From: Mobula hypostoma
Taxonomy: Eukaryota
NCBI RefSeq assembly: GCF_963921235.1
Contig: NC_086097.1
Span: 79,486,001 to 79,550,000 of the forward strand
Direction: 5' to 3'
Length of the DNA stretch: 64,000 bases
Each line of letters begins with the position of its first letter. Positions within the stretch are counted from its first letter, which is position 1. The translations under genes and the position numbers were made by a program. A model generated the notes under the pieces. The model was not told the origin of the DNA and ran no database searches. It saw nothing but the letters and a program-made list of their open reading frames with translations. Below are positions 5,244-63,091 of this stretch, piece after piece.

Positions 5244-5380
5244 CACAAACAAGAGAAAATCTGCAGATGCTGGAAATCCAAGCCACACACACAAAATATT
5301 GGAGGAACTCAGCAAGCCAGGCAGTATCTATGAAAAAAAGTACATTTGACATTTCCGGCCAAGACCCTTTGGCAGGAAGA
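5244..5380 (-). mobile_element. Short Penelope-like terminal-repeat fragment with hammerhead remnant
   Basis: TSD GTGAGAAAGT at 5234-5243 and 5381-5390. Minus strand reads CTGCCAA-agggtcttggccg-GAAAT-GTC. Same family as 47514-49079. Confidence 0.8.
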
Positions 5381-12072: not shown

Positions 12073-14769
12073 ATAGATTTCTTTGGGACTGAAAACTACT
12101 GTAAGTGAGGGGTAATGTGGCGAGAGGAGCGGTTTAGTTAACCAGTTAACATTTTGGGTCAAAGACCTTCCTCGAAACTTCCAGACCCTTAAAGGTTTTG
12201 GGGAAAGTTCACTGACCTGAAACATTAACTGATTTCTCTTTTCAGAGAAGCAGCTTGACTGGCTGAGTTGCTCCAGCATTTGTTTTTGTTTCAAATTCCT
12301 GAGCCTGCAGTTTCAGTTGCTTATCATAAAAGGAGACAGTCCTTTTTTTCAGAATAGCAAAGGTAATATTGCAGGATGCACAGTATCACTTTAATAGCAG
12401 AATCCAGGTCAGTAGCAAAACCATATCCCCACCTACCCAACTTGTGACTTTTAGCATTTATTTCACCAGAGTTTGGTGACAAAGGTCAAATAATCACCTC
12501 TAGCAATGCTTATCAGATTTCCACGTAATAGTGCATCATCTGCTGCTTTTCAAATTCCTTTAAGCTTCATTTGTTTCCATTTAATTATAGATAGATGCTT
12601 AGCTTATTTTAGCTTGTTAAGTAAAGTTCCAGTCTGGTTCTGTCACTCCTCCATATGGCACCGAGCAGCAACATAGCATGTGGCTAAGTATATTCTAGGA
12701 TCCAAATTACTGGGGATTTATCACTAATCCTGCAATCATACACTTTCAGCAGAGTCAGAATACAGCTTCTGGTCATATGAACAAAAATAAATTAATGAAA
12801 GCTACTGTAAAACTCTTCAAAGGGAAATTGTTACTGTAAAAAAATCATAAAGGTACTGTTAGATTATTCTACTTAGTCATTTTAGGATTGAATACTAAAT
12901 TCAAAACATGACTTGGGAGAGAAACTTTCCAAAAGAAGGGAACAATGAAGAGGTTGGTCTTAGTTGGGTGATTCTTCCCACCAATAACCTGCATAGATTG
13001 TGCCTCCAGATATTATTTACACCTCCAGCTTAAACATAGATGGAATGGATGGATCTGTGGGTGAAGTGAGTATCAAGATAGTATTTGACCTAATGTGTCA
13101 TCAAGAAGCCCCAATAAAATTGTAGTATTTATAGATGGAAAGAAAACCCTTCTCACAGAAATGACACTTTGTTTAGAATACATTTGTGGTTAGAAACCAA
13201 CCCTAGTCTAGTATAGCACTGCAGAATTGCAGAGGGCACAGTCCTCAGTCCAATTTCACAGGTGATTTTTCCTCCATTATAAAAATCAGAAGTGTGCATG
13301 TTTAGTGCTTAATCTCATTAGCAAATCAGCAGCTATTAAAAAGACCGTGATCATGTGCATAATTCAAAATTGCAATCTTCCTACAAGTACATGCATAGAT
13401 TTTATTGTCTTTTGGAGGGCTTCCTGAATGTTTTCAGATAAAAGTGAATGCAAGTATATGCCTGCAACCTCACCAGGCTGTTAGAAGCATATGACTGTAA
13501 TATGCTTTTTGTGCACACTCATTCCCATAATGACAGTTATCTCAGTTTTTGTCCAAATTACACACTGCATAACATGGTAATATATTTTTCTAACTACCAC
13601 GATCCTGATATTCTTGTCATTGTTAGAATGCTACCATACTGCAGAGGGAAATTATCTCCACTTTACTGAGGAGCATTTATTATAGGGAAAGTATGCCATG
13701 CTAACTGTGTCAATTTAATAAAGCATTATATGGAAGTGCCTTTCTAAATGTGAAGAATCCCTCAGATATATAACATAGTAACTGGAAAAATAACAATTAA
13801 CTTGCAAACTGAAGAAAGAACAATCAGGATAAATGGAAAAAAATGTCAATACATTCTTATATTTCAACTAATAAAATTTGAAACTTGGCATCTTTAATAT
13901 ATCTCGGAAGAATTTAACTTCTCAGTTGGGCTAAGTACTACTGATATCCAAATCGTTTGTACCAATGATGCAGACAGATGAGAACTTGGTTTAAGTATCA
14001 CCAACAATTTGTCCTGGTCCAGCCACATGAATTCTCTGCTCTCACCAATTTTTACATTTTTATTATCAAAGGCATACTAACTGGACACATCATAAGTATA
14101 GCTTCAATCCTGCTGTTACCAGACTCTTTAACAGAGCTCTCATTTGCTAAAAGCTGAAATCTTGATTTCCCAATCTACTTCATGGCAACTCCCGCACATT
14201 GTTGGTCTACTTGCACAGCACTTTCTTTGTAACACTACATTCTGCATAGTTTTCCTTTTTTGCTCCCCCACTATCTGGGCAACACATAAAAACCTGCATC
14301 TCGGTATATCTGACAATAATAAATATATTTCAATTACACATTTTCAATAAAACACCCCAGATCTGTCAATAATTAATAGTCTGCCTTGTGTAATATTTTA
14401 ACTTCCCTACAACATGCCACACGAGAAGGTGTGGATAATTTTCTGGAACACCCAAAGGACATAGAACCTCTAGGCATTCACTAACAGTGGTTATCCTTGA
14501 ACAATGAGATACACAATCACTGAACTAATGGTGTGTTGACAGGTATCACTAAGAATAGCAATCTCAGGTTTATTATCACTCAGGCATGAGAGCTAGATCA
14601 ATATGAAAGAATGGCTGCCTGTCATTCTGAGAGACAGAACACATTACATTTACTCTCAATTTCCTAAGGCTACCTATACTCGTGGTGTTTTGATGAATGC
14701 CAAATGCAGATTGCTCTTGTTCAGGTTTTTCAATGAAACATGGAAAGGAATTGAGTAGTATTTCTAGGC

Positions 14770-18493: not shown

Positions 18494-20900
18494 AAACCCG
18501 GACTGAAGAAATCATGTTATTTCCGGGCCCAGCCCATGCATTATTACTGTTCACTACTGTAGTACAGAGTTAGTTAGTATGACTTCCCTACTCGAATCAT
18601 GTAACGATGCAATTTCTGTGAACTAGGTATGACATTCAATGTGATAAAGTTCAGAATCTGCACTTTCAAATGATCGTGACTGCATTTCTCTAGCCTATGG
18701 CCCAACTGAGATATTGCTGCCCATTTTATGTACCTTCAGGCAGAGAGTCAGGTTTTGCCTGAGCTATGATAATGTCATAACTTTTTCCATTATAGATCGC
18801 AGCACTTGAGGTTGGACTTAAACAACAGGTGATTGACTGTGATCATTAATCCATATTGAAAAGGGCAGAAACAAACCAAATAAAAAATTATAGACAGTAT
18901 AGTGTACGGTATCTGAAATATGGATTTATACCAACAGCAAGCAACCAACAGCAGTTAGTGTGTCTGTTGTATGAAAAAGTTTTTCCAAATGACACAATAA
19001 AACCATCCAAGCCCTTTGAACATTTGAAGAGAATACACTAATAAAACAAACAAAAACTTGGCTTATTTTCAGTAAGTTCATGAAAACTTTAAGAAATGTA
19101 AAACACGTCAAAACATGTTTGCCGGCATTTCACAACAAACAGTGATTATTTATGTGCTTCATGCAATATTTCATTGCTCCTTGCTAAATCTGGGAAGTCC
19201 CATACAATTACAGAAGAACCGATTCTTCCAATAGTATGAGAGCTTCTGAGTACGGTTTTGCATAGATCACCAGAGTTAATAATTAAAGTGATTCCCCTCT
19301 GCTGTAACTTTGTTCAAAGATGAATAAAGGAAATGTCTCAGAATGTGGAAGACAGATGTGCACCAAACTTAGAGCAACAGAATTTGCTCTGCAATTGAAT
19401 GAATCAAATTTGCCAGGCAACAAATCTTTGCTTCTTGGTTATTTTCGCTTCATGAAAGATGAAAGCATGATTCAAGAGCTGTTATTTGCAAAGGGTCAAG
19501 AAATAGATATGAAGGGGAAGTCAATATTTTGTATTATTGGGCAATTTTTCAAAGAGAAGGATATTCCACTCACCAACGTTCTTGCTTGTGCAACAGATGG
19601 GCCACTACCAATGACAGGATGCCACTTTCCTAAAAAAGCTGTACCTAACATATTTACTGTCTAATATAGAGACAACATCTCATCACAAAAAAAAGTGATC
19701 AGCTGCACATATCATTAAATACTGTTATCACAGTGGAAAATAAAATTAAGTCCCATGTTCTCAATTATTGACTATTTCAAGAGTTCTGTATTGAGAATGA
19801 TGAACAGTTTGCTATTGCACATAGAAGTCAGTTGGATCTCAAAAGTAAACTACTTGAGATGCTTTTATGCATTTTTTGAAATTGTGATAAAATCATTTGA
19901 AAACTCGTATGCTACATTCAGTAATCAATTGAAGAATATTAGGAACAACATTGCTTATTTATCAAAATTAGTCACAAAGTTTAACAAAATCAGTCTTCAA
20001 TTGAAAGGAAATAATCTGAGTCTTATCAAAGTCAAATCAGCCGTCTCCACATTTCTGTCCAAGTTAACTCTGTTTTAGTGCACCACTGGATGTCATGACA
20101 TTTTCCAATTTCCAAGCCTCTCTGAGTTGGAAGAGAAAGAAAGAATACCGGATGATGATCTTCAAGTATACTATGCCCACCATGGTGAAATGCATAAAGA
20201 CATGTCAGAGAGATTTCAGGATCTTCTCTTGATCCAAGTTCCTGATTGGTTAATAAATCCATTCCTGAAAACTTGTAATGAGGAATTAACAGGAAGGATG
20301 GAGGAAGAATTGATCTCACTACAAAATAACTCTGAGCTGAAGCCAAAGTTCAAAAAATCATATCAAGACTTTTGGTTGCAGAAAGAAATCTCTGAATGCT
20401 GTCCTATATGGTGGAAAAAAGATCACTATGTTATTTATGGGCTCTCCAACATCATAATTATTGGACCATGCTTTCAGTGCAGTTGCCCAACAAAACCAGA
20501 CTGCAAATTACTGAAGGTGGGGATTTGATGCTCCTTCTGAGTGACCTTCAGCCTGATGTTGAGAAAGTGGTATCACTGCACCAAGTCCATTCATTTCACT
20601 GAAAAGTGAAAAAGCAATGAAGTAGTGAATAGTTGGACTACCAATGTATGCTCAAAATTGTTGATGAAACTTGCTTTTACTATTATCAGATAAAAAAAAT
20701 TGTAGCTTGAAATAGATTTGAATAACTTTTGCAATTATTTGTCACTGCTTTGAGTTTGCAGTTCCTATATTCTTTCACTCTGCATCATAAATCAAAAATT
20801 CTTTATAGTTTCATGTAATGGCCAGAAAGGGAGAGTGGTCTCTGGGGGTGTAGTCTGGGAGACAAGGGGACGCTAACCCAAAAATGTTTGGGAACCGCTG
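18494..20900 (+). mobile_element. hAT (Charlie/Buster-type) transposon relic with decayed transposase
   Basis: ORFs 18856..19041 (RQYSVRYLKYGF...KPSK..HL..H zinc finger), 19320..19664 (FALQLNES, ACATDG), 19755..20078 and 20127..20528. 3' TIR gtttgggaaccgctg ends at 20900. Confidence 0.88.
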
Positions 20901-23487: not shown

Positions 23488-23716
23488 AATGTCTATTCAT
23501 TCTATAAGTACAGCATTCTTGATGGAATTTAGAGCATGGATGCAATGGGCAATGCTGGTACTTCTACATTATTATTCTGATAATGCTTTGGTGGTAAACT
23601 CCACTGAGAATCAAAGAAATAATAGACGGTTTTGCAATTCTCTGGAACTCTACTGAGAAATTTACCTGGAAAATCTATGCCAGTGAATTAACAGTAAACA
23701 CAAAACGCAGATCCGC

Positions 23717-23951
23717 AAACACAAGAAAATCTGCAGATGCTAGAAATCCAAGGCAACTCACACAAAATGCTAGAGGAACTCAGCAGTTCAGGCAGCATCT
23801 ATGGAAAGGAATAAACAGTTGACAGTCAGACAGTTTCAGGCTGACACTTGAGTCCTGATGCAGGGTCTTGGTATGAAACATCGACCGTTTATTCCTTTCC
23901 ACACATGCTGCCTGACCTGCAGAGTTCCTCTAGCATTTTGTGTGTGTTGCC
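23717..23951. mobile_element. Fold-back Penelope-like terminal-repeat element with a decayed hammerhead
   Basis: Inverted arms cacacaaaatgctagaggaactc / gagttcctctagcattttgtgtg. Core remnant agtcCTGATGCagggtcttggtatGAAACATC near 23851-23882. Confidence 0.78.
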
Positions 23952-28439: not shown

Positions 28440-29130
28440 AAAGCACACTGCACTACCGTAGATGTGATATCAAGGAACAATTAAAACCACTGGATAGGGC
28501 AAAGGTTGTAGGACCAGTCAGATTCTCAGTTGAGTTACTGCAGATCTGCTTTCCAGAACTGGCGCATCTCTGGCCAAGCTGTTCTAGTACAGAAATATCT
28601 GCACAGACATGTGGAATACTGTCCTGGCATGCCCTTCCCACAAAAAGGAGAACAAATCCAATAAGTATCACCTCATGAGTAATGAGTTCTGGACCAAGTG
28701 TTCACAGTAAAACACAATCTGGGCATAATTGAGTAGATTAATGCATTGTGATTGACACATTGTATCACTTGGCTGATGATTGAAGACAAAGTGATACAAT
28801 GCGTCATCCACAATGCATTAATCTACTCAATAATGCCCAGATTGTGTTTTGCTTCATCACCGAGGTCAGACATGGCATACTTATTGATGTTTGTACAAAT
28901 GTTCACTTCCATTTACAGCTCTTCAACAAATGAAATAGCTTAAGTCTACAAACCCAAGATCAAGACTACTTTGATGTATGCACTAATTAGTGACAAGCCC
29001 AGCAGCATTTCCAAAACTCACACGTTTATCATCAAGGAAGGAGCAGCACGAAGACTGGGAACACCACCAACACGCTCCTCTCCAATTCACATGCTATTCT
29101 GACTTGAAAATATATTCCTGTTCCTTTATT
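28440..29130 (+). mobile_element. Old CR1/L2-group LINE fragments (approximate)
   Basis: LKPLDRAKVVGP...LLQICFPELA, a pre-RT linker motif, at 28433..28678. Family 3'-type sequence near 29000-29120. Confidence 0.55.
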
Positions 29131-29301: not shown

Positions 29302-29433
29302 TCACAAACAAGGGAAAATCTGCAGAAGGTCAAATCCCAGCAACACACACAAAATGCTGTAACGTTGACTATAGATTTTTTCCATAGATGATGCCTGACC
29401 TGTTGTGTTCCTCCAGCATTTTGTGTGTGTTGC
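29302..29433. mobile_element. Short fold-back Penelope-like fragment
   Basis: 13-bp A-rich TSD AAAAAATAATAAA at 29289-29301 and 29434-29446. Arms gcaacacacacaaaatgctg / cagcattttgtgtgtgttgc. Confidence 0.78.
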
Positions 29434-31823: not shown

Positions 31824-33332
31824 TCTATATACTACTAAAACTCTCATGCTCTGCCTGTCTGTTTGTCTGTTTGTGACCTCCAATTAGTGCAAACCGTGCA
31901 TTACAGCGGCACTTTTTTTTGGCTAAATTGAATTAAAGTGCGCTAACTTACAGAATGCAGGCAAAGTTCAGGGTTATGTATTCATATAAAATTGCTCATG
32001 CCCCAAAAATCACCAGGCTGCCTTTCACCTGAGACCCGATTGGCCATCATGGAAATCAGGACACGACAGCCCGACGCATGTACACGGCCAGCCTCAGCCG
32101 CGCCTCACGATGCTCACAGAACCAGCTCCACCTTCCACGGAGAACGCGACGCCACACCATGATGCATGCGCATGGCCAGCCTCAGCAGCTTGGAGGCTTG
32201 GGTGTTACTGCTTCCTATCTCCTATCAAGCATTAGGGTAAAAATACATGGATAGCCTAATTATGCCACGTGGAAAGAGAAGGGGGACATTATGGTCAAGA
32301 GATGATGCCAAAAGTTGTCGGGAAGCGGCAAGGAAAGGGAGAGTACAACAATCGGATGAGGCCAGGGCTGCACGTCTCCAGGATCAAAGAGTCAAGACAA
32401 AAAAGATGAGAGAATACGAGACAGAGGAGGACAGACATGCACGTCTCCAAAATGACAACAATAGGCATAGATGGAGGAGAGAACAAGAATCCGATCAGTC
32501 CAGGGCCGCACGACACCAGGACCACAGAGGTAGAACAAATGGTAGAAGAGATGAAGAGACGAAGGATGAAAGGGCTATGCATCTCCAGAATGACAAAAAC
32601 AGGCAGAGAAGGAGGCGAGAGGAAGAGACAGAGGAGAAAAGGAGATCAACTCGAGAATATGTGGCACAGAGTAATTATTGCGAGAGTTGCTGAAGACGAC
32701 AATGGCTGCTTTTGACAACAATACCTTGACAGAGAAAGAGCAAGGCAAAATGCACGACTCGCATGCCATCACTTTTCTGCTGATGTTGGTTCGATGACCA
32801 GAGTATGGTCTCACTGTCGTGCCTTCCTATTCACTGGAGAAACCGCACATTTCTGCTGTATGAAGGGAAAAGTCAGGATAGGCAATTTGCAGCCTCTACC
32901 TAATGAACTCCTCAATTTGTACGGCATAATGAACCTATTGCAAATGAGTTCAGGAAGAACATCAGACAATACAATTGCCTCTTCTAAATGACATCCTTTG
33001 GTGCCAAAGAAGTCATTCCAACTAGGAATCGATGGAATTCTTCTGTGATTATTCAAGGCCAAATCCACCATTACATCGGACATTTAATTCCAGACCCGAC
33101 CGAGCATGCTCGATTCCTTCAAATTTACTTCATGGATACTTAATGTTCATTCTGGTCACATATTTGTCTTGCTATGCGTCTTTCTTCTTTAATAAGCTGA
33201 GTTTTTCTTCTTTAATTTCCAAATCAAAGAGATAGCAATAGCATTCAGGAAAATTTACTGTTCATTCTGGTCACATCAGACTGCACTACCCTTCTCTCAA
33301 AGGGTGCTCCAACGGGTCACCCCATTGTCTAG
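31824..33332 (+). mobile_element. Non-autonomous Helitron, 1509 bp, deletion derivative keeping the RepHel N-terminus
   Basis: A|TC 5' end and CTAG|T 3' end, no TSD. Subterminal hairpin caacggg-tcac-cccattg. Encodes Arg/Glu-rich repeats, SHCRAFLFTGE..FCCMKGKV and FRKNIRQYNCLF*MTSFGA...IQGQIHHYIG...FLQIYFMD. Confidence 0.92.
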
Positions 33333-46965: not shown

Positions 46966-47618
46966 TTACAGTTGATACATATCAAACGAAACTGAAACAA
47001 AACACATTATGTTTTTGGGAATTCGTTTAAAACTAATAAAGAACAGTTTTATCATTTGGAATCCCCATTTGTTTTTTTCTTTTTCTTAGTACTCCACTAT
47101 TTAATTGGAAATAGATTTTTGGCGCATTCTGTAAATCCTCATTGTTTTCCAAATGCAGACATTCTGCAACTTCTAACAGTGAAGCTCAATTTCATCCATT
47201 CACTTGCTGCACCGTAAGAAAACATGAGCATTACAAATTTTGCCAGTTCAAATGCTAAAGCCAAATATCCCCCAGTTATGATCTACTCAAAGTTCAAAGG
47301 TCAAATTAAATGTTTTATTGAAGTTTATATATATCACCACACAGTACCCAGAGATTAATTTTTGCAGGCATTCATAGTAAAACAAGGAAATACAATGGAA
47401 TCAAAGGAAAACAACACACCAACAAATTATGACAAACAAACAATGTGCAAAAGAAGACAAACTGTGCAGATTTAAAAGAAGTAAATAAATAAAACTGAGA
47501 ACATGGGTTATATTTAAACGCAAACAACAGGAATTCTGCAGATGCTGGAAATTCAAGCAACACACATCAAAGTTGCTGGTGAACGCAGCAGGCCAGGCAG
47601 CATCTCTAGGAAGAGGTG

Positions 47619-47655
47619 CAGTCGACGTTTCAGGCCAAGACTCTTCGTCAGGACT
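47619..47655 (-). ncRNA. Minimal type I hammerhead ribozyme motif (intact core, GUC site)
   Basis: Minus strand agtc-CTGACGA-agagtcttggcct-GAAAC-GTC-gact. Stem I agtc/gact. Palindromic ACGT stem III. Stem II carries mismatches. Confidence 0.7.
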
Positions 47656-48982
47656 AACTGAAGGAAGGGTGAGTAAGGGATTTGAAAGTTGGAGGGGGAG
47701 GGGGAGATCCAAAATGATAGGAGAAGACAGGAGGGGGAGGGATGGAGCCAAGAGCTGGACAGGTGATTGGCAAAAGGGATACGAGAGGATCATGGGACAG
47801 GAGGTCCGGGAAGAAAGACAAGGCGGGGGGGGAACCCAGAGGATGGGCAAGGGGTATATTCAGAGGGACAGAGGGAGAAAAAGGAGAGTGAGAGAAAGAA
47901 TGTGTGTATAAAAATAAGTAACAGATGGGGTACGAGGGGGAGGTGGGGCATTAGCGGAAGTTAGAGAAGTCGATGTTCATGCCATCAGGTTGGAGGCTCC
48001 CTTACCACCGTTCAGGGACTTAAACGCATCTCCCCCATTTCACGTACATCTGCTCTCACTCCATCCTCCCGCCACCCCACTAGGAATAGGGTTCCCCTGG
48101 TCCTCACCTACCACCCCACCAGCCTCCGGGTCCAACATATTATTCTCCGTAACTTCCGCCACCTCCAACGGGATCACACCACTAAGCACATCTTTCCCTC
48201 CCCCCCCCCTGCATTCCGCAGGGATTGCTCCCTACGCAACTCCCTTGTCCATTCGTCCCCCCCATCCCTCCCCACTGATCTCCCTCCTGGCACTTATCCG
48301 TGTAAGTGGAACAAGTGCTATACACGCCCTTACACTTCCTCCCTTACCACCATTCAGGGCCCCAAACAGTCCTTCCAGGTGAGTTGGCTGGGGTGATATA
48401 CTGCGTCCGGTGCTCCCGATGTGGCCTATTATATATTGGCGAGACCCGACGCAGACTGGGAGACCGCTTTGCTGAACATCTACGCTCTGTCCGCCAGAGA
48501 AAGCAGGATCTCCCAGTGGCCACACATTTTAATTCCACATCCCATTCCCATTCTGACATGTCTATCCACGGCCTCCTCTACTGTAAAGATGAAGCCACAC
48601 TCAGGTTGGAGGAACAACACCTTATATTCCGTCTGGGTAGCCTCCAACCTGATGGCATGAACATCGACTTCTCTAACTTCCGCTAATGCCCCACCTCCCC
48701 CTCGTACCCCATCTGTTAATTATTTTTATACACACATTCTTTCTCTCACTCTCCTTTTTCTCCCTCTGTCCCTCTGAATATACCCCTTGCCCATCCTCTG
48801 GGTCCTTGCCCCCCTCTTGTCTTTCTTCCTGGACCTCCTGTCCCATGATCCTCTCATATCCCTTTTGCCAATCACCTGTCCAGCTCTTGGCTCGATCCCT
48901 CCCCCTCCTGTCTTCTCCTATCATTTTGGATCTCCCCCTCCCCCTCCAACTTTCAACTCCCTTACTCACTCTTCCTTCAGTT

Positions 48983-49019
48983 AGTCCTGACGAAGGGTCT
49001 CGGCCTGAAACGTTGACTG
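48983..49019 (+). ncRNA. Minimal type I hammerhead ribozyme motif (intact core, GUU site)
   Basis: agtc-CTGACGA(48987-48993)-agggtctcggcct-GAAAC-GTT-gactg. Confidence 0.7.
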
Positions 49020-50001
49020 TACCTCTTCTTAGAGATGCTGCCTGGCCTGCTGAGTTCACCAGCAACTTTTATGCGTGTTACATGGGTTATATAGTCCTCT
49101 GAGTGAAGTCATCCATGCTGTTTCAGGAGCTTGATGGTTGAAGAGTAATAACTGTTCCTGAGCCTGGTGGTGTGGGAGCTAAGGCTCCTGTCCTTCTTGA
49201 TGGCAGCAGTGAGAAGAGAGCATGATATAAAAGGTGGGGTCCTTGATGATGGATGTTAACTTTTTGTGGCATCACTCCATGTTGATACGTTCAGTGGTAG
49301 GGAGGATTTTGCCTGTAATGGATTGAGCTGTATCCACCCTTTTAGTAAGGTTTTCCATTCTTGGGTTTTGGTGTTTCCATACGAAGCTGTGATGCAACCA
49401 GTCAGGATATTTTCCACCGTGCATCTATAGAAGTTTGTCAAAGTTTCAATGACATACCAAATCTGTGTAAACTTCTAAGTAGAGGCGCTGTTGTGCCTTC
49501 TTTGTAATGGCACATATATGCTGGTTCGAGGACAGATCTTCTAATATGATAATGCCAAGGAATTTAAGGTTACCTCTCCTTCTCTGATCCCCTAATGAGG
49601 ACTGCATTATGGACATCTGGTTCCTTCCTCCTGTAATCAATAATCAGCTCTTTGATTTTGCTGATGTTGAGTGAGAGGATGTTGTTGTAGCGCCATTCAA
49701 TCAGAATTGCAATTTCTCTCCTATATGCTGATTCGTCACCACCTTTGGTTTGGCTTCTACTTCTCTCATTTGTCCACATTTCAACAAGATAAATTCTGAA
49801 TGATGAGGGAGAAAGCTCAATGCCCTTTTCAATAGCGGTCAAGCAGAATGTGTAATCCATTCAGAAAAAAGGGCTTGTATCAGCTCTTACTTATAGATTT
49901 GTGGTGACAAAGAAATTTATCAGTCATTTGCAGGAAAGGTTTTGGTTCCTTGTCCTAAATGCCTAGATTCAATGTTAAGTAAATTTAACATCAAAACTCA
50001 C

Positions 50002-52674: not shown

Positions 52675-52830
52675 ACACAAGAAAATCTGCAGGTGCTGGA
52701 GGTCCAAAGCAACACGCACAAAATTCTGGAGAAACTCTACAGGTCAGGCAGCACCTATGGAAAGGAATAAACAGTTGACTTTTTGGGCTGAGACTCTTCA
52801 TCAGAACCCTTCATCATATCCTTCATCAGC
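52675..52830 (-). mobile_element. Short Penelope-like fragment inside a CR1 3' end
   Basis: 12-bp TSD ATATGATTACAA at 52663-52674 and 52831-52842. Ends in a hammerhead core remnant. Confidence 0.8.
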
Positions 52831-53840: not shown

Positions 53841-54063
53841 TTTTTTTAAAAACGCAAACAACAGGAATTCTGCAGATGCTGGAAATTCAAGCAACACACA
53901 TCAAAGTTGCTGGTGAATGCAGCAGGCCAGGCTGCATCTCTAGGAAGAGGTATAGTCGACGTTTCAGGCCTGACGAAGGGTCTCGGCCTAAAACGTCGAC
54001 TGTACCTCTTCCTAGAGATGCTGCCTGGCCTGCTGCGTTCACCAGCAACTTTGATGTGTGTTG
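53841..54063. mobile_element. Fold-back Penelope-like element with 79-bp arms and a 14-nt loop
   Basis: 14-bp TSD TTTATCATTCATCT at 53827-53840 and 54064-54077. Arms 53892-53970 and 53985-54063 match at 75/79 by hand count. Confidence 0.9.
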
Positions 54064-58175: not shown

Positions 58176-58289
58176 TCCCTGACATTCATAAGCTTACCAA
58201 ACATTCAATATACATGAAAAGATAAATATATCATAAAATATAATTAGAAGTTAATTCAAAAAATCTCTTCTTTGGAACGTGTCTCTCTA

Positions 58290-61200
58290 CGACCAACGAC
58301 ATAGGCAGGAAAAGGGATGAGATCCTGAAGTGTGAGTTTCGGGAACTAGGCAGAAGGCTGAAGAACAGGACCTCAAGGGTGGCGTTCTCCGGATTGCTGC
58401 CAGTGCTACATGACAGTGATGGTAAGAATTGGAGGAGATGGCAGTTGAATGCGTGGCTGAGGAGTTGGTGCAGGGAGCAGGGTTTTAGATTTTTGGATCA
58501 TTGGGATCTCTTCTGGGGAAAGTGGGACCTGTACAGATTGGATGGGTTGCACCTGAACTTGAGGGGGAGCAATATCCTTGCAGGTAGGTCTGCTAGCATG
58601 GTTCGGGAGGGTTTAAACTAATTTACAAGGGGGTGGGACCCAAAGAGATAGAGCAGTGAAAGAAGTGCATGGAGTAAAGCCAGATCTAACATATAAAGAG
58701 GGTTTGAGGAAAGAGAAGCAGAATAAAGGGTGTAAAGGTAGTAAGGTAGAAGGGCTAAAGTGCATGTACTTCAATGCAAGAAGCATCAGGAACAAAGGCG
58801 ATGAACTGAGAGCTTGGATACATACATGGAATTATGATGTACTGGCCATTACAGAGACTTGGTTGGCACCAGGTAAGGAATGGATTCTCAATATTCCTGG
58901 ATTTCAGTGCTTTAAAAGGGATAGAGAGTGGGGGGAAGGGGAGGAGGGGTGGCATTACCGGTCAGGGATACTATTATAGCTACAGAAAGGGTGGGTAATG
59001 TAGCAGGATTCTCTTTTGAGTCCATATGGGTGGAAGCCAGGAACAAGAAGAGAGCAGTTACTCTATTGGGAGTATTCTATAGGCCCCCTGGTAGCAGCAG
59101 AGATACCGAAGAGCAGATTGGGAGGCAGATTTTGGAAAGGTGCAAAAATAACAGGGTTGTTATCATGGGTGACATTAACTTCCCTAATATTGATTGGCAC
59201 CTGATTAGTTCCAAGGGTTTGGACGGGGCAGAGTTTGTTAAGTGTGTCCAGGACGGATTCCTGTCACAGTATGTTGACAGGCCGACTAGGGGGAATGCCA
59301 TACTAGATCTAGTATTAGGTAATGAACCGGGTCAGGTCACAGATCTCTCAGTGGGTGAGCATCTGGAGGACAGTGACCACCGCTCCCTGGCCTTTAGCAT
59401 TATCATGGAAAAGGATAGAATCAGAGAGGACAGGAAAATTTTTAATTGCGGAAGGGAAAATTATGACGCTATAAGGCTAGAACTTGCGGGTGTGAATTGG
59501 GATGATGTTTTTGCAGGGAAATGTACTATGGATATGTGGTTGATGCTTAGGGATCTCTTGCAGGATGTTAGGGATAAATTTGTCCCAGTGAGGAAGATAA
59601 AGAATAGTAGGGGGAAGGAACCATGGGTGATAAGTGAGGTGGAAAATCGTCAGGTGGAAGAAGGCAGCATACATGAGGTTTAGGAAGCAAGGATCAGATA
59701 AGTCTATTGAGGAATATAGGGTAGCAAGAAAGGAGCTTAAGAAGGGGCTGAGGAGAGCAAGAAGGGGGCATGAGAAGGCCTTGGCGAGTAGGGTAAAGGA
59801 AAACCCGAAGGTAGGACCGATTAAAGATAAAGGTGGAGGCTGTGGAAGTGAACGAGGTCCTCAATGAATACTTCTCTTTGGTATTCACCAATGAGAGGGA
59901 ACTTGATGACGTTGAGGACAATACGAGTGAGGTTGATGTTCTTGAGCATGTTGATATTAAGAGAGAGGAGGTGTTGGAGTTGTTAAAATACATTAGGACG
60001 GATAACTCCCCGGGACCTGACGGAATATTCCCCAGGCTGCTCCACGAGGCGAGGGAAGAGATTGCTGAGCCTCTGGCTAGGATCTTTATGTCCTCGTTGT
60101 CCACGGTAATGGTACCGGAGGATTGGAGGGAGGCGAATGTTGCCCCCTTGTTCAAAAATAGTAGTAGGGATAGTCCGGGTAATTATAGACGAGCCTTACG
60201 TCTGTAGTGGGAAAGCTGTTGGAAAAGATTCTTAGAGATAGGATCTATGGGCATTTAGAGAATCATGGTCTGATCAGGGACAGTCAGCATGGCTTTGTGA
60301 AGGGTAGATTGTGTCTAACAAGCCTGATAGAGTTCTTTGAGGAGGTGACCAGGCATATAGATGAGGGTAGTGCAGTGGATGTGATCTATATGGATTTTAG
60401 TAAGGCATTTGACAAGATTCCACATAGTAGGCTTATTCAGAAAGTCAGAAGGCATGGGATCCAGGGAAGTTTGGCCACGTGGATTCAGAATTGGCTTGCC
60501 TGCAGAAGGCAGAGGGTCATGGTGGAGGGAATACATTCGGGTTGGAGGGTTGTGACTAGTGGTGTCCCACAAGGATCAGTTCTGGGACCTCTACTTTTCG
60601 TGATTTTTATTAACGACCTGGATGTGGGGGTAGAAAGGTGGTTTGGCAAGTTTGCAGACGACACAAAGGTTGGTGGTGTTGTAGATAGTGTAGAGGATTG
60701 TCAAAGATTGCAGAGAGACATTGATAGGATGCAGAAATGGGCTGAGAAGTGGCAGATGGAGTTCAACCCGGAGAAGTGTGAGGTGGTACACTTTGGAAGG
60801 ACAAACTTCAAGGCAGAATACAAAGTAAGTGGCAGGATACTTGGTAGTGTGGAGGAGCAGAGGGATCTAGGGGTACATGTCCACAGATCCCAGAAAGTTG
60901 CCTCACAGTTAGATAGGGTAGTTAAGAAAGCTTATGGGGTGTTAGCTTTCATAAGTCGAGGGATAGAGTTTAAGAGTCGCGAGGTAATGATGCAGCTCTA
61001 TAAAACTCTGGTTAGGCCACACTTGGAGTACTGGTCACCTCACTATAGGAAGGATGTGGAAGCATTGGAAAGGGTACAGAGGAGATTTACCAGGATGCTG
61101 CCTGGTTTAGAGAGTATGGATTACGATCAGAGATTAAGGGAGCTAGGGCTTTACTCTTTGGAGAGAAGGAGGATGAGAGCAGACATGATGGAGGTATACA

Positions 61201-61537
61201 ACATATTAAGAGGAATAGATAGAGTGGATAGCCAGCACCTCTTCCCCAGGGCACCACTGCTCAATACGAGAGGACATGGCTTTAAGGTAAGGGGTGAGAA
61301 GTTCAAGGGGGGATATTAGAGGAAGGTTTTTTACTCAGAGAGTGGTTGGTGCGTGGAATGCACTGCCTGAGTCAGTGGTGGAGGCAGATATACTCGTGAA
61401 AATTAAGAAACTGCTAGGCAGGTATATGTTGGAATTTAAGGTGGGGTGTTATATGGGAGGCAGGGTTTAAGGGTCAGCACAACATTGTGGGCTGAAGGGC
61501 CTGTACTGTGCTGTACTGTTCTATGTTCTATGTTCTA
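58290..61537 (+). mobile_element. Relatively young CR1 LINE: ORF1 esterase C-terminus plus most of ORF2 (APE endonuclease and RT), frameshifted
   Basis: TNDIG...DGLHLN (SGNH esterase). YFNARSIRNK, AITETWL, MGDINFP and SDH (APE). QHGF, DFSKAFD, GVPQGSVLGP and FADDTK (RT). (TTCTATG)n tail. Confidence 0.95.
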
Positions 61538-62485: not shown

Positions 62486-63091
62486 AACAAGCAACACACA
62501 CAAAATGCTGGATAAACCCAGCAGGCCAGGCAGCATCTATAGAAAGGAAGTACAGTCGACATTTCTGTCCGATACCTTTTGGCAGGACTGAAGAAAAAGA
62601 GATGAGGAATAGATATAAAAAGTTGGGGGAGGGAAGAGAGAAACACAAGGTGATAGGTGAAACAGGGAGGGGGAGGGACGATGTAAAGTGCGGGAAGTTG
62701 AAAGTGGTACGGGGTTGAAGAAGGGGGAGACCAATACAAAAGAACAGGAGGCCATGGAAGGAAGAAACGTGGGGAGGGCCATCAGAGAGAGGTGATGGGC
62801 AGGCAAGGAGATAAGGTGAGAGAGGGAAAAGGGGATGGTAATGGTGAAGTGGGGGGGGGCATTACCGGAAGTTCGAGAAATCAATGTTCATGCCATCACC
62901 TTGTGTTTCTCTCTTCCCTTCCCCCACCTTTCATATCTACTCCTCATCTATTTTTCTCCGGTCCTGCCGAAGGGTCTCGGCCCGAAACATCGACTATACT
63001 TTCTTGTCTAGATGCTGGCTGGCCTGCAAGTTCCTCCAGATTTTGTGTGTTTTGCTTGGATTTCCAGCATCTACAGATTTTCTCTTGTTTA
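62486..63091. mobile_element. Fold-back Penelope-like terminal-repeat element with two variant hammerhead cores
   Basis: 13-bp TSD AAATTTCCTTACT at 62473-62485 and 63092-63104. Inverted arms about 62491-62653 and 62896-63058. Confidence 0.88.

Follow-up and report, generated by a model that had tools for sequence, protein, structure and literature searches.

The window analysed here, a stretch of 64,000 nucleotides from the ray Mobula hypostoma, carries on its minus strand a gene with a MoeA_N match. Six exons of this gephyrin-like gene (MoeA domain) lie at 21.3-50.3 kb, with introns rich in LINE fragments, and the exon motifs near 50.2, 46.9, 46.05, 43.2, 34.6, and 21.3 kb are those of what we take to be gephyrin. 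An intron of this gene holds, some 0.6 kb away from the 46.9-kb exon, a single insertion, 47514-49079, bounded by exact 13-bp direct repeats, ACATGGGTTATAT (47501-47513 and 49080-49092), the target site duplication (TSD) reported in the preliminary description of this locus; as a chance control, 5 of 20,000 random intervals had an exact flanking repeat of at least 10 nt. The insertion contains two head-to-head arms (47559-48001 and 48636-49079) that are 95.3% identical over 444 columns, within a few nucleotides of the 441-bp inverted repeats originally described. The arms differ by 20 substitutions (12 transitions and 8 transversions) and one gap column, and these differences, together with the TSD, exclude an assembly fold-back artefact as the source of the structure. 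When the flanks are rejoined with one copy of the TSD, they align across the site to a sister copy of an older host repeat, at about 51.9-52.2 kb, and 47514 is, therefore, a true insertion; such rejoining was attempted at six sites and was informative at two (5244 and 47514). The coordinates of this insertion and of its relatives in the window are collected in Table 1.

Several other features of the window belong to the general repeat landscape. At 58244-61390, there is a fairly intact LINE, with an esterase-like ORF1 end, an endonuclease, and a 376-aa RT ORF, which we assume to be of the CR1 type; many older fragments elsewhere in the window are presumably CR1 and Rex-like. Decayed transposase-like ORFs at 19308-20528 look hAT/SCAND3-like by eye, and a charged low-complexity ORF at 32241-32693, with repeats such as ARLQ, resembles the N-terminus of Helitron-type proteins. 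A separate 148-bp imperfect palindrome at 28706-28853, 86% self-complementary and MITE-like, is unrelated to the element described here. The Rfam miRNA matches at 53944-54011 and 28725-28834 are below the gathering scores and are attributable to palindromes.

Table 1. The 47514 insertion and its sister insertions in the window (end positions are counted from C3)
Feature	Position	Strand	Description
Left TSD	47501..47513	.	13 bp; single copy in rejoined host repeat
One-sided tail	47514..47558	-	45 nt past the end of the other arm; 3' end +137 vs +92
Inverted arm	47559..47998	-	last endonuclease codons, pyrimidine-rich pLTR, hammerhead, downstream leader
Hammerhead, left arm	47619..47656	-	intact core, GUC; helix II with one mismatch; G10.1-U11.1; predicted cut 47624|47623
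Junction filler	47997..48018	+	21-nt copy of 48339-48359 plus one additional base; 2-nt overlap with left arm
Long sense arm	48019..49079	+	5'-truncated, without tail
ORF remnant	48022..48686	+	linker, CX4CXXC-type zinc motif, GIY-YIG with CCHH; stop 48684-48686
Pyrimidine tract	48960..48984	+	ends CAG (48978-48980), TAG (48982-48984)
Hammerhead, right arm	48982..49019	+	intact core, GUU; 5-bp helix I, 4-bp helix II; G10.1-U11.1; predicted cut 49014|49015
Right TSD	49080..49092	.	13 bp; exact direct repeat
Sister	5244..5380	-	single tailed arm, 5' end -2; core CUGCCAA (A6C, G8A); 10-bp TSD; in CR1-type RT fragment
Sister	23713..23950	.	two arms (tailed ends +10, tail-less -4); A9C; 14-bp TSD, imperfect (12/14)
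Sister	29302..29433	.	two-armed, the tailed arm ending at +73 and the tail-less one at about +18 to +22; without CUGANGA; 13-bp TSD
Sister	52675..52830	-	single tailed arm, 5' end -3/-2; G12A; 12-bp TSD
Sister, 47514 subfamily	53841..54063	.	two-armed, the tailed arm ending at +15 and the tail-less one at -4 to -1; G12A; 14-bp TSD
Sister	62486..63091	.	two-armed, the tail-less arm ending at -342 and the tailed one at about -56 to -69, each with A6C; 13-bp TSD

The coding remnant of the insertion identifies its nature. The preliminary description recognized a GIY-YIG ORF remnant and a Penelope-like element (PLE), and both assignments are borne out: 48306-48686 matches Pfam PF01541 (GIY-YIG) with an E-value of 3.1e-5 and a score of 24.6 bits, above the cut-off of 22.6, and a protein search finds its best matches in Mobula hypostoma (95%) and, at 90%, in Hypanus sabinus, which places the host among the myliobatiform rays. 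The translated 48022-48393 segment matches the linker of this Mobula protein (P0001) at 96% identity; P0001 is an RT plus endonuclease (EN) protein in which an RT YIDD motif is located upstream of the linker. An RT lies upstream of the endonuclease in the 95-96% identical ray relatives and also in full-length relatives of 750-950 aa that are 41-47% identical to P0003; the CCHH and the catalytic R/H/E/N residues align between the remnant and the relatives. As judged from these similarities, 47514 is almost certainly a PLE; a DNA transposon or MITE, as well as a DIRS element, are excluded by the PLE RT-GIY-YIG homology, the variable TSDs, and the asymmetric ends.

The 47514 insertion is a dead, 5'-truncated copy of an endonuclease-positive PLE family. 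The truncation falls within the RT-to-endonuclease linker, such that the RT is absent. After 48383, 19 nt have been lost between two GTGAG words, and the resulting frameshift separates the two frames of the ORF; the family contigs show the lost piece as loose ends, 734 contigs in X1 and 661 in X5. The last Cys of the zinc motif reads Arg in this copy only (the motif is intact in P0001, P0002, and P0003), and position 48325 carries a minority allele among the family contigs. A CX2-5CXXC linker is present in 102 of the 115 representatives that have a C-terminal YIG motif (148 examined). According to the available part of PMC8557442, this linker marks Neptune and Nematis and is absent from Penelope and Poseidon, and, in the available part of a recent preprint, Neptune and Poseidon are the sole PLE clades in the sampled vertebrates (bioRxiv 10.64898/2026.07.22.740005). 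Because Poseidon lacks the zinc linker and the sampled vertebrates possess Neptune and Poseidon only, the motif and elimination together make Neptune the most likely clade; of the 10 close representatives, 8 are nameless and 2 are 'hypothetical/uncharacterized'. The ray gene models P0003, P0005, and P0017, which are named as DIPK1C, mucin-2, and ABHD14A isoforms, include the PLE coding sequence of this family; these host-gene names reflect either annotation contamination or exonisation.

The ray PLE family is very abundant, in agreement with the high copy number proposed earlier. There are seven insertions in 64 kb, and a 1,336-nt query (element plus flank) is matched by 284,492 and 166,497 contigs from the DNA runs of two organisms and by 218 from a third; the summed contig depth, which is not a copy number, is 1.5-14.5 million over the element, compared to 9.7 for the unique flank contig in X1. 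This abundance turns the ray genome into a very large natural sample for the study of inverted-copy formation and of the role of the pLTR hammerhead, and it is in the regularities of the arm ends that most of the worth of a follow-up resides.

All six further relatives that had been noted in the window exist. Five have exact TSDs (10, 13, 12, 14, and 13 nt) and the sixth (23717) has an imperfect one (12/14), so that six of the seven insertions have exact TSDs of 10-14 bp. The arms of 53841 are 90-97% similar to those of 47514, and this is the one relative among the six that belongs to the same subfamily; the other five are 76-84% similar. Every insertion in the window has its own private inner junction. 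The six short relatives appear to be independent insertions, made in the same way and representing at least three subfamilies. An older degraded relative at 12135-12325 adjoins a SINE-like repeat and combines a pLTR end with a tail-like stretch and, on the opposite strand, one short piece; no TSD was found for it and its ends are unclear, and it was therefore excluded from every count.

Each arm of 47514 contains the minimal type I hammerhead motif, CTGACGA-A-stem II-GAAAC-GT(C/T), with a palindromic helix III, as originally proposed. Under the checks for minimal hammerheads (min-HHRs) taken from the available part of PMC4209133 (core, U16.1, H17, extra base 9.1, palindromic 15.2-16.2 CG, and 5-bp helix I), both arms pass, and these are the only two to do so among the eight arms that retain the core region. 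In both, the G10.1-C11.1 pair is replaced by G-U, whereas the sister arms 62R (62486) and 52 (52675) have G-C; the replacement may represent either decay or a subfamily change and would be expected to lower activity, leaving the origin of the motif unaffected. The family contigs mostly carry the pairing base at the left-arm helix II mismatch (47642; 96% by depth in X1), and the 40 family variants listed, out of 158, include none at position 11.1 or A6.

In the sister arms, the core defects are A6C (three arms), G8A (two), G12A (two), and A9C (one), and all six short relatives lack an unbroken canonical core; accordingly, their characterization as ribozyme-bearing insertions is not supported, the cores being broken or partial. 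The A6C core (CUGCCGA/CUGCCAA) is common to three arms of two insertions (5340-5380, 62553-62593, and 62957-62996) and is possibly a subfamily trait. In other hammerheads, A6C sharply cuts Mg2+ cleavage and is a known natural variant (PMC7151607, available part). The core is not significantly more conserved than its flanks among these dead copies, a comparison with little power, with 80/88 versus 397/462 positions conserved (p 0.14) and, taking one arm per insertion, 59/66 versus 301/347 (p 0.36).

The 16 Rfam matches at E<=10 do not include a hammerhead, the hammerhead is absent from the minimum free energy (MFE) folds of the monomers (z 0.3 and 0.6), and in dimer cofolding, the hammerhead dimer is not the MFE structure, with helix III duplexes of -3.1 and -3.5 kcal/mol; the lack of an Rfam hit and the unremarkable monomer folds are expected for a motif proposed to require a dimer or a protein. 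A loose CUGANGA..GAAA scan of the window gave 17 matches against 7.5 expected, 2 of which come from this PLE family, and a 24-nt pattern of the family matched neither metagenome nor viral contigs.

The two hammerhead motifs of 47514 sit on opposite strands, and therefore, no hammerhead dimer can form within one transcript of this copy. In the fold of the minus strand, which corresponds to the host pre-mRNA, 429 of the 443 left-arm nucleotides are predicted to pair with the right arm, so that the sense hammerhead motif would be buried in a 440-bp hairpin. Because of this predicted pairing and the opposite orientation of the motifs, hammerhead activity in place within the host pre-mRNA seems unlikely. 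More generally, long intronic inverted copies of this kind can be predicted to generate numerous hairpins of double-stranded RNA in the pre-mRNAs of host genes. The hammerhead, then, is best viewed as a pLTR motif of the parent element that, in the copies in the window, is a passenger and probably silent.

The positions of the arm ends are informative about how the copies arose. Counted from C3, the 3' ends of the arms fall into two clusters, +92 to +97 (five arms) and +127 to +137 (seven arms). All five two-armed copies consist of exactly one tailed and one tail-less arm, with a tail of 35-45 nt, an arrangement with a chance of 1 in 32 if the arms chose freely (a post hoc calculation), and both single-armed copies are tailed. 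The 47514-47558 tail thus seems to mark the outer RT start site. The cleavage site, at +28, is the start of 0 of 12 arms, and 11 of the 12 extend 5' of it; having read through this site, these arms were templated by uncleaved RNA, as in PMC11167929.

These observations bear directly on the proposal in the preliminary description that the 47514 copy is the template of the short insertions, and on a model built on it in which hammerhead cleavage would set the short inserted RNAs. The close resemblance of 53841 to the 47514 arms is what one would expect in this case, but the copy itself has no RT and carries the 19-nt frameshift, five of the six relatives come from other subfamilies, inner junctions are private, no arm starts at the cleavage site and nearly all read through it, and the opposite-strand motifs are sequestered in the predicted minus-strand fold. 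We consider this scenario highly improbable. The earlier interpretation thus survives for the PLE, its GIY-YIG remnant and inverted repeats, the minimal hammerhead with its palindromic helix III, and the abundance of the family, and is not supported for the template role, the ribozyme-bearing short copies, and a self-cleaving system.

At the opposite, 5', side, 4 of the 12 arms terminate within -4 to -1, where helix I begins and immediately 5' of the ribozyme core (p 0.006 under a uniform null and 0.001-0.008 under exponential nulls; these are post hoc estimates, and microhomology blurs the ends). A pyrimidine tract and an AG stand just before this cluster; directly adjoining helix I, the tract at 48960-48984 is a candidate 3' splice site or initiator, and the cluster itself could reflect RNA that starts or is spliced at this point, or else a structural stop. 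In the Penelope element of D. virilis, an intron ends at helix I (PMC4209133, available part) and is located 46 bp after the transcription start (PMC2377424, available part). The contig joints and loose ends listed for the ray family include neither a splice joint nor an empty site. At the 5' end of the 52675 insertion (52808-52830), there are two partial core-start repeats (CTGATGAAGG-like), which resemble the outcome of repeated re-priming at a template end.

The end cluster invites the alternative that the short copies constitute a non-autonomous, retrozyme- or SINE-like family copied as a unit from transcripts that start at the hammerhead, a notion to which the near-identical extents of 5244 and 52675 and the derivation of animal retrozymes from pLTRs (bioRxiv 10.64898/2026.07.22.740005, available part) also lend themselves. 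However, a parent RNA beginning or spliced at helix I predicts the same cluster, no two insertions share an inner junction, tandem units are absent, and the cores are broken. This alternative, accordingly, appears improbable.

The inner junctions offer further clues. In 47514, the contigs show, as loose ends, that the family sequence departs from the left arm after 47998 and carries on upstream of 48019-48022, and none of the contig pieces listed spans the junction itself. The 21-nt filler is a sense-strand copy the source of which (48339-48359) lies inside the other arm, and the inner-junction homology is 2 nt at 47997 and 53841 and 4 nt at 62486. The tail-less arm reaches further 5' in 5/5 cases (with a 40-nt head start) and is longer by run length in 3/5, an observation that weakly supports a single RNA template; a comparison of alleles between the arms at 15 sites does not separate one template from two. 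In 47514 and 62486, it is the tail-less arm that includes the long unpaired middle, and the tailed arm, therefore, is not a fold-back copy of the tail-less arm as it stands.

Drawing on these seven insertions in 64 kb, we consider the best overall explanation, with a probability of roughly 0.6, to be that 47514 is a dead truncated PLE insertion made by twin priming and cDNA joining. Under this mechanism, an RT-GIY-YIG protein supplied by an intact copy elsewhere would cut both target strands, 13 nt apart, and the 3' end of each cut strand would serve as a primer for the copying of uncleaved element RNA, one from the outer start site (approximately +130 to +137 from C3), giving rise to the tail, and the other from the inner site (+92 to +97). 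Both cDNAs would halt early, the tailed cDNA would jump onto the other one, with the 21-nt filler recording a false start, and the ends would join by short homology, after which repair would close the gap, leaving head-to-head arms within one TSD. In vitro, PLE activity includes the cutting and extension of both strands, with two internal RT start sites that bound the tail and uncleaved RNA as the main substrate, and for a Poseidon element, ribozyme cleavage is dispensable for insertion (PMC11167929). The main text of that paper does not connect both-strand priming to inverted insertions, and we found no account of twin priming for PLEs in the literature searched, which did not cover subscription papers, Repbase, or Dfam.

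The principal competitor concerns the origin of the inverted arm within the same PLE, namely, self-priming, on an antisense template or by cDNA fold-back, followed by endonuclease trimming of about 40 nt from the hairpin end. Antisense self-priming has been proposed by the authors who described the inverted copies of Adineta vaga Penelope (PMC3846280), and resolution by the endonuclease as the source of the tail, in PMC8557442 (both in the available parts); moreover, a 10-bp palindrome, TCAGGCCTGA, forms the junction of 53841, the arms within each testable insertion look to be of one subfamily (those of 23717 and 62486 share diagnostic bases), and one-sided trimming of a full hairpin would produce an identical appearance. 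Nevertheless, this route requires an antisense template and a one-sided trim that falls on the longer-reaching arm in all five cases, the tail is retained by both single-armed copies, the sense filler at 47997 fits a tailed cDNA jumping to another cDNA, and extension of both strands has been demonstrated in vitro (PMC11167929). We regard self-priming as rather unlikely, and twin priming remains the preferred reading.

Conceivably, though this is a speculation that we would hold loosely and that is probably not correct in full, the copies record an insertion intermediate in which one RNA is primed twice, from both cut strands and at two start sites, resulting in one tail per inverted copy with the tailed arm trailing; the -4 to -1 cluster would then be a hard template end, and the 100-135-nt animal 'solo hammerheads' would be by-products of 5'-pLTR priming. 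The spread of a subfamily with the A6C core, if it occurred, would imply that PLEs can spread in vivo without Mg2+-dependent cleavage.

Comparison with known systems places the ray family firmly among the PLEs. No paper naming it was found in our searches, which extended neither to Repbase and Dfam nor to preprint supplements; the available parts of PMC7229834 and PMC8969392 do not name it, and the word 'PLE' is absent from the available text of two ray/shark genome preprints, the supplements of which may list Penelope. With the EN+ PLEs of the Neptune clade (PMC8557442, available part), the family shares the C-terminal GIY-YIG with CCHH, the CX2-5CXXC linker, 5' truncation, the inverted pLTR, the one-sided tail of 30-40 bp, and the pLTR hammerhead; in contrast to these elements, the ray tail is 35-45 nt, the TSDs are 10-14 bp, the targets in the window are not microsatellites, and the family is nameless in the papers found. 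Inverted pLTRs, a one-sided tail, and TSDs of 8-10 bp are described for PLEs in the available parts of PMC8557442 and PMC3846280. In particular, Adineta vaga Penelope (PMC3846280, available part) shares the head-to-head pLTRs, the one-sided tail, palindromic junctions, and microhomology-mediated internal deletion, but has TSDs of 8-10 bp and a low copy number, whereas the ray family is present in very high copy.

The minimal hammerheads of metazoan PLEs (PMC4209133, available part) have in common with the ray motif CUGANGA/GAAA, the extra nucleotide 9.1, the palindromic 15.2-16.2, and the 5-bp helix I, and likewise occur as single copies or as opposite-strand pairs, the latter 100-700 bp apart; cartilaginous fish do not appear in Table S1 of that source. 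The ray motif differs in having G10.1-U11.1 instead of G-C (in both 47514 arms), A6C in three sister arms, and a helix II of 4 bp compared to 7-8 bp in Schistosoma. As in the ray family, Poseidon_Ac of Anolis (PMC11167929) reads through the uncleaved ribozyme and has a pair of internal RT start sites separated by about 40 nt; in the ray family, these sites follow the hammerhead cut at a distance of 65-110 nt, compared to 85-92 nt for the first Poseidon_Ac site. Unlike the ray family, Poseidon is without the zinc linker. Non-LTR retrozymes (PMC7229834 and bioRxiv 10.64898/2026.07.22.740005, available parts) similarly combine a type I hammerhead of pLTR origin with dispersed monomers, but are tandem with complete hammerheads, whereas the seven insertions in the window are single or head-to-head truncated arms with TSDs. 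The architecture, the tail, the TSD, and the hammerhead motif of 47514 have all already been published for PLEs.
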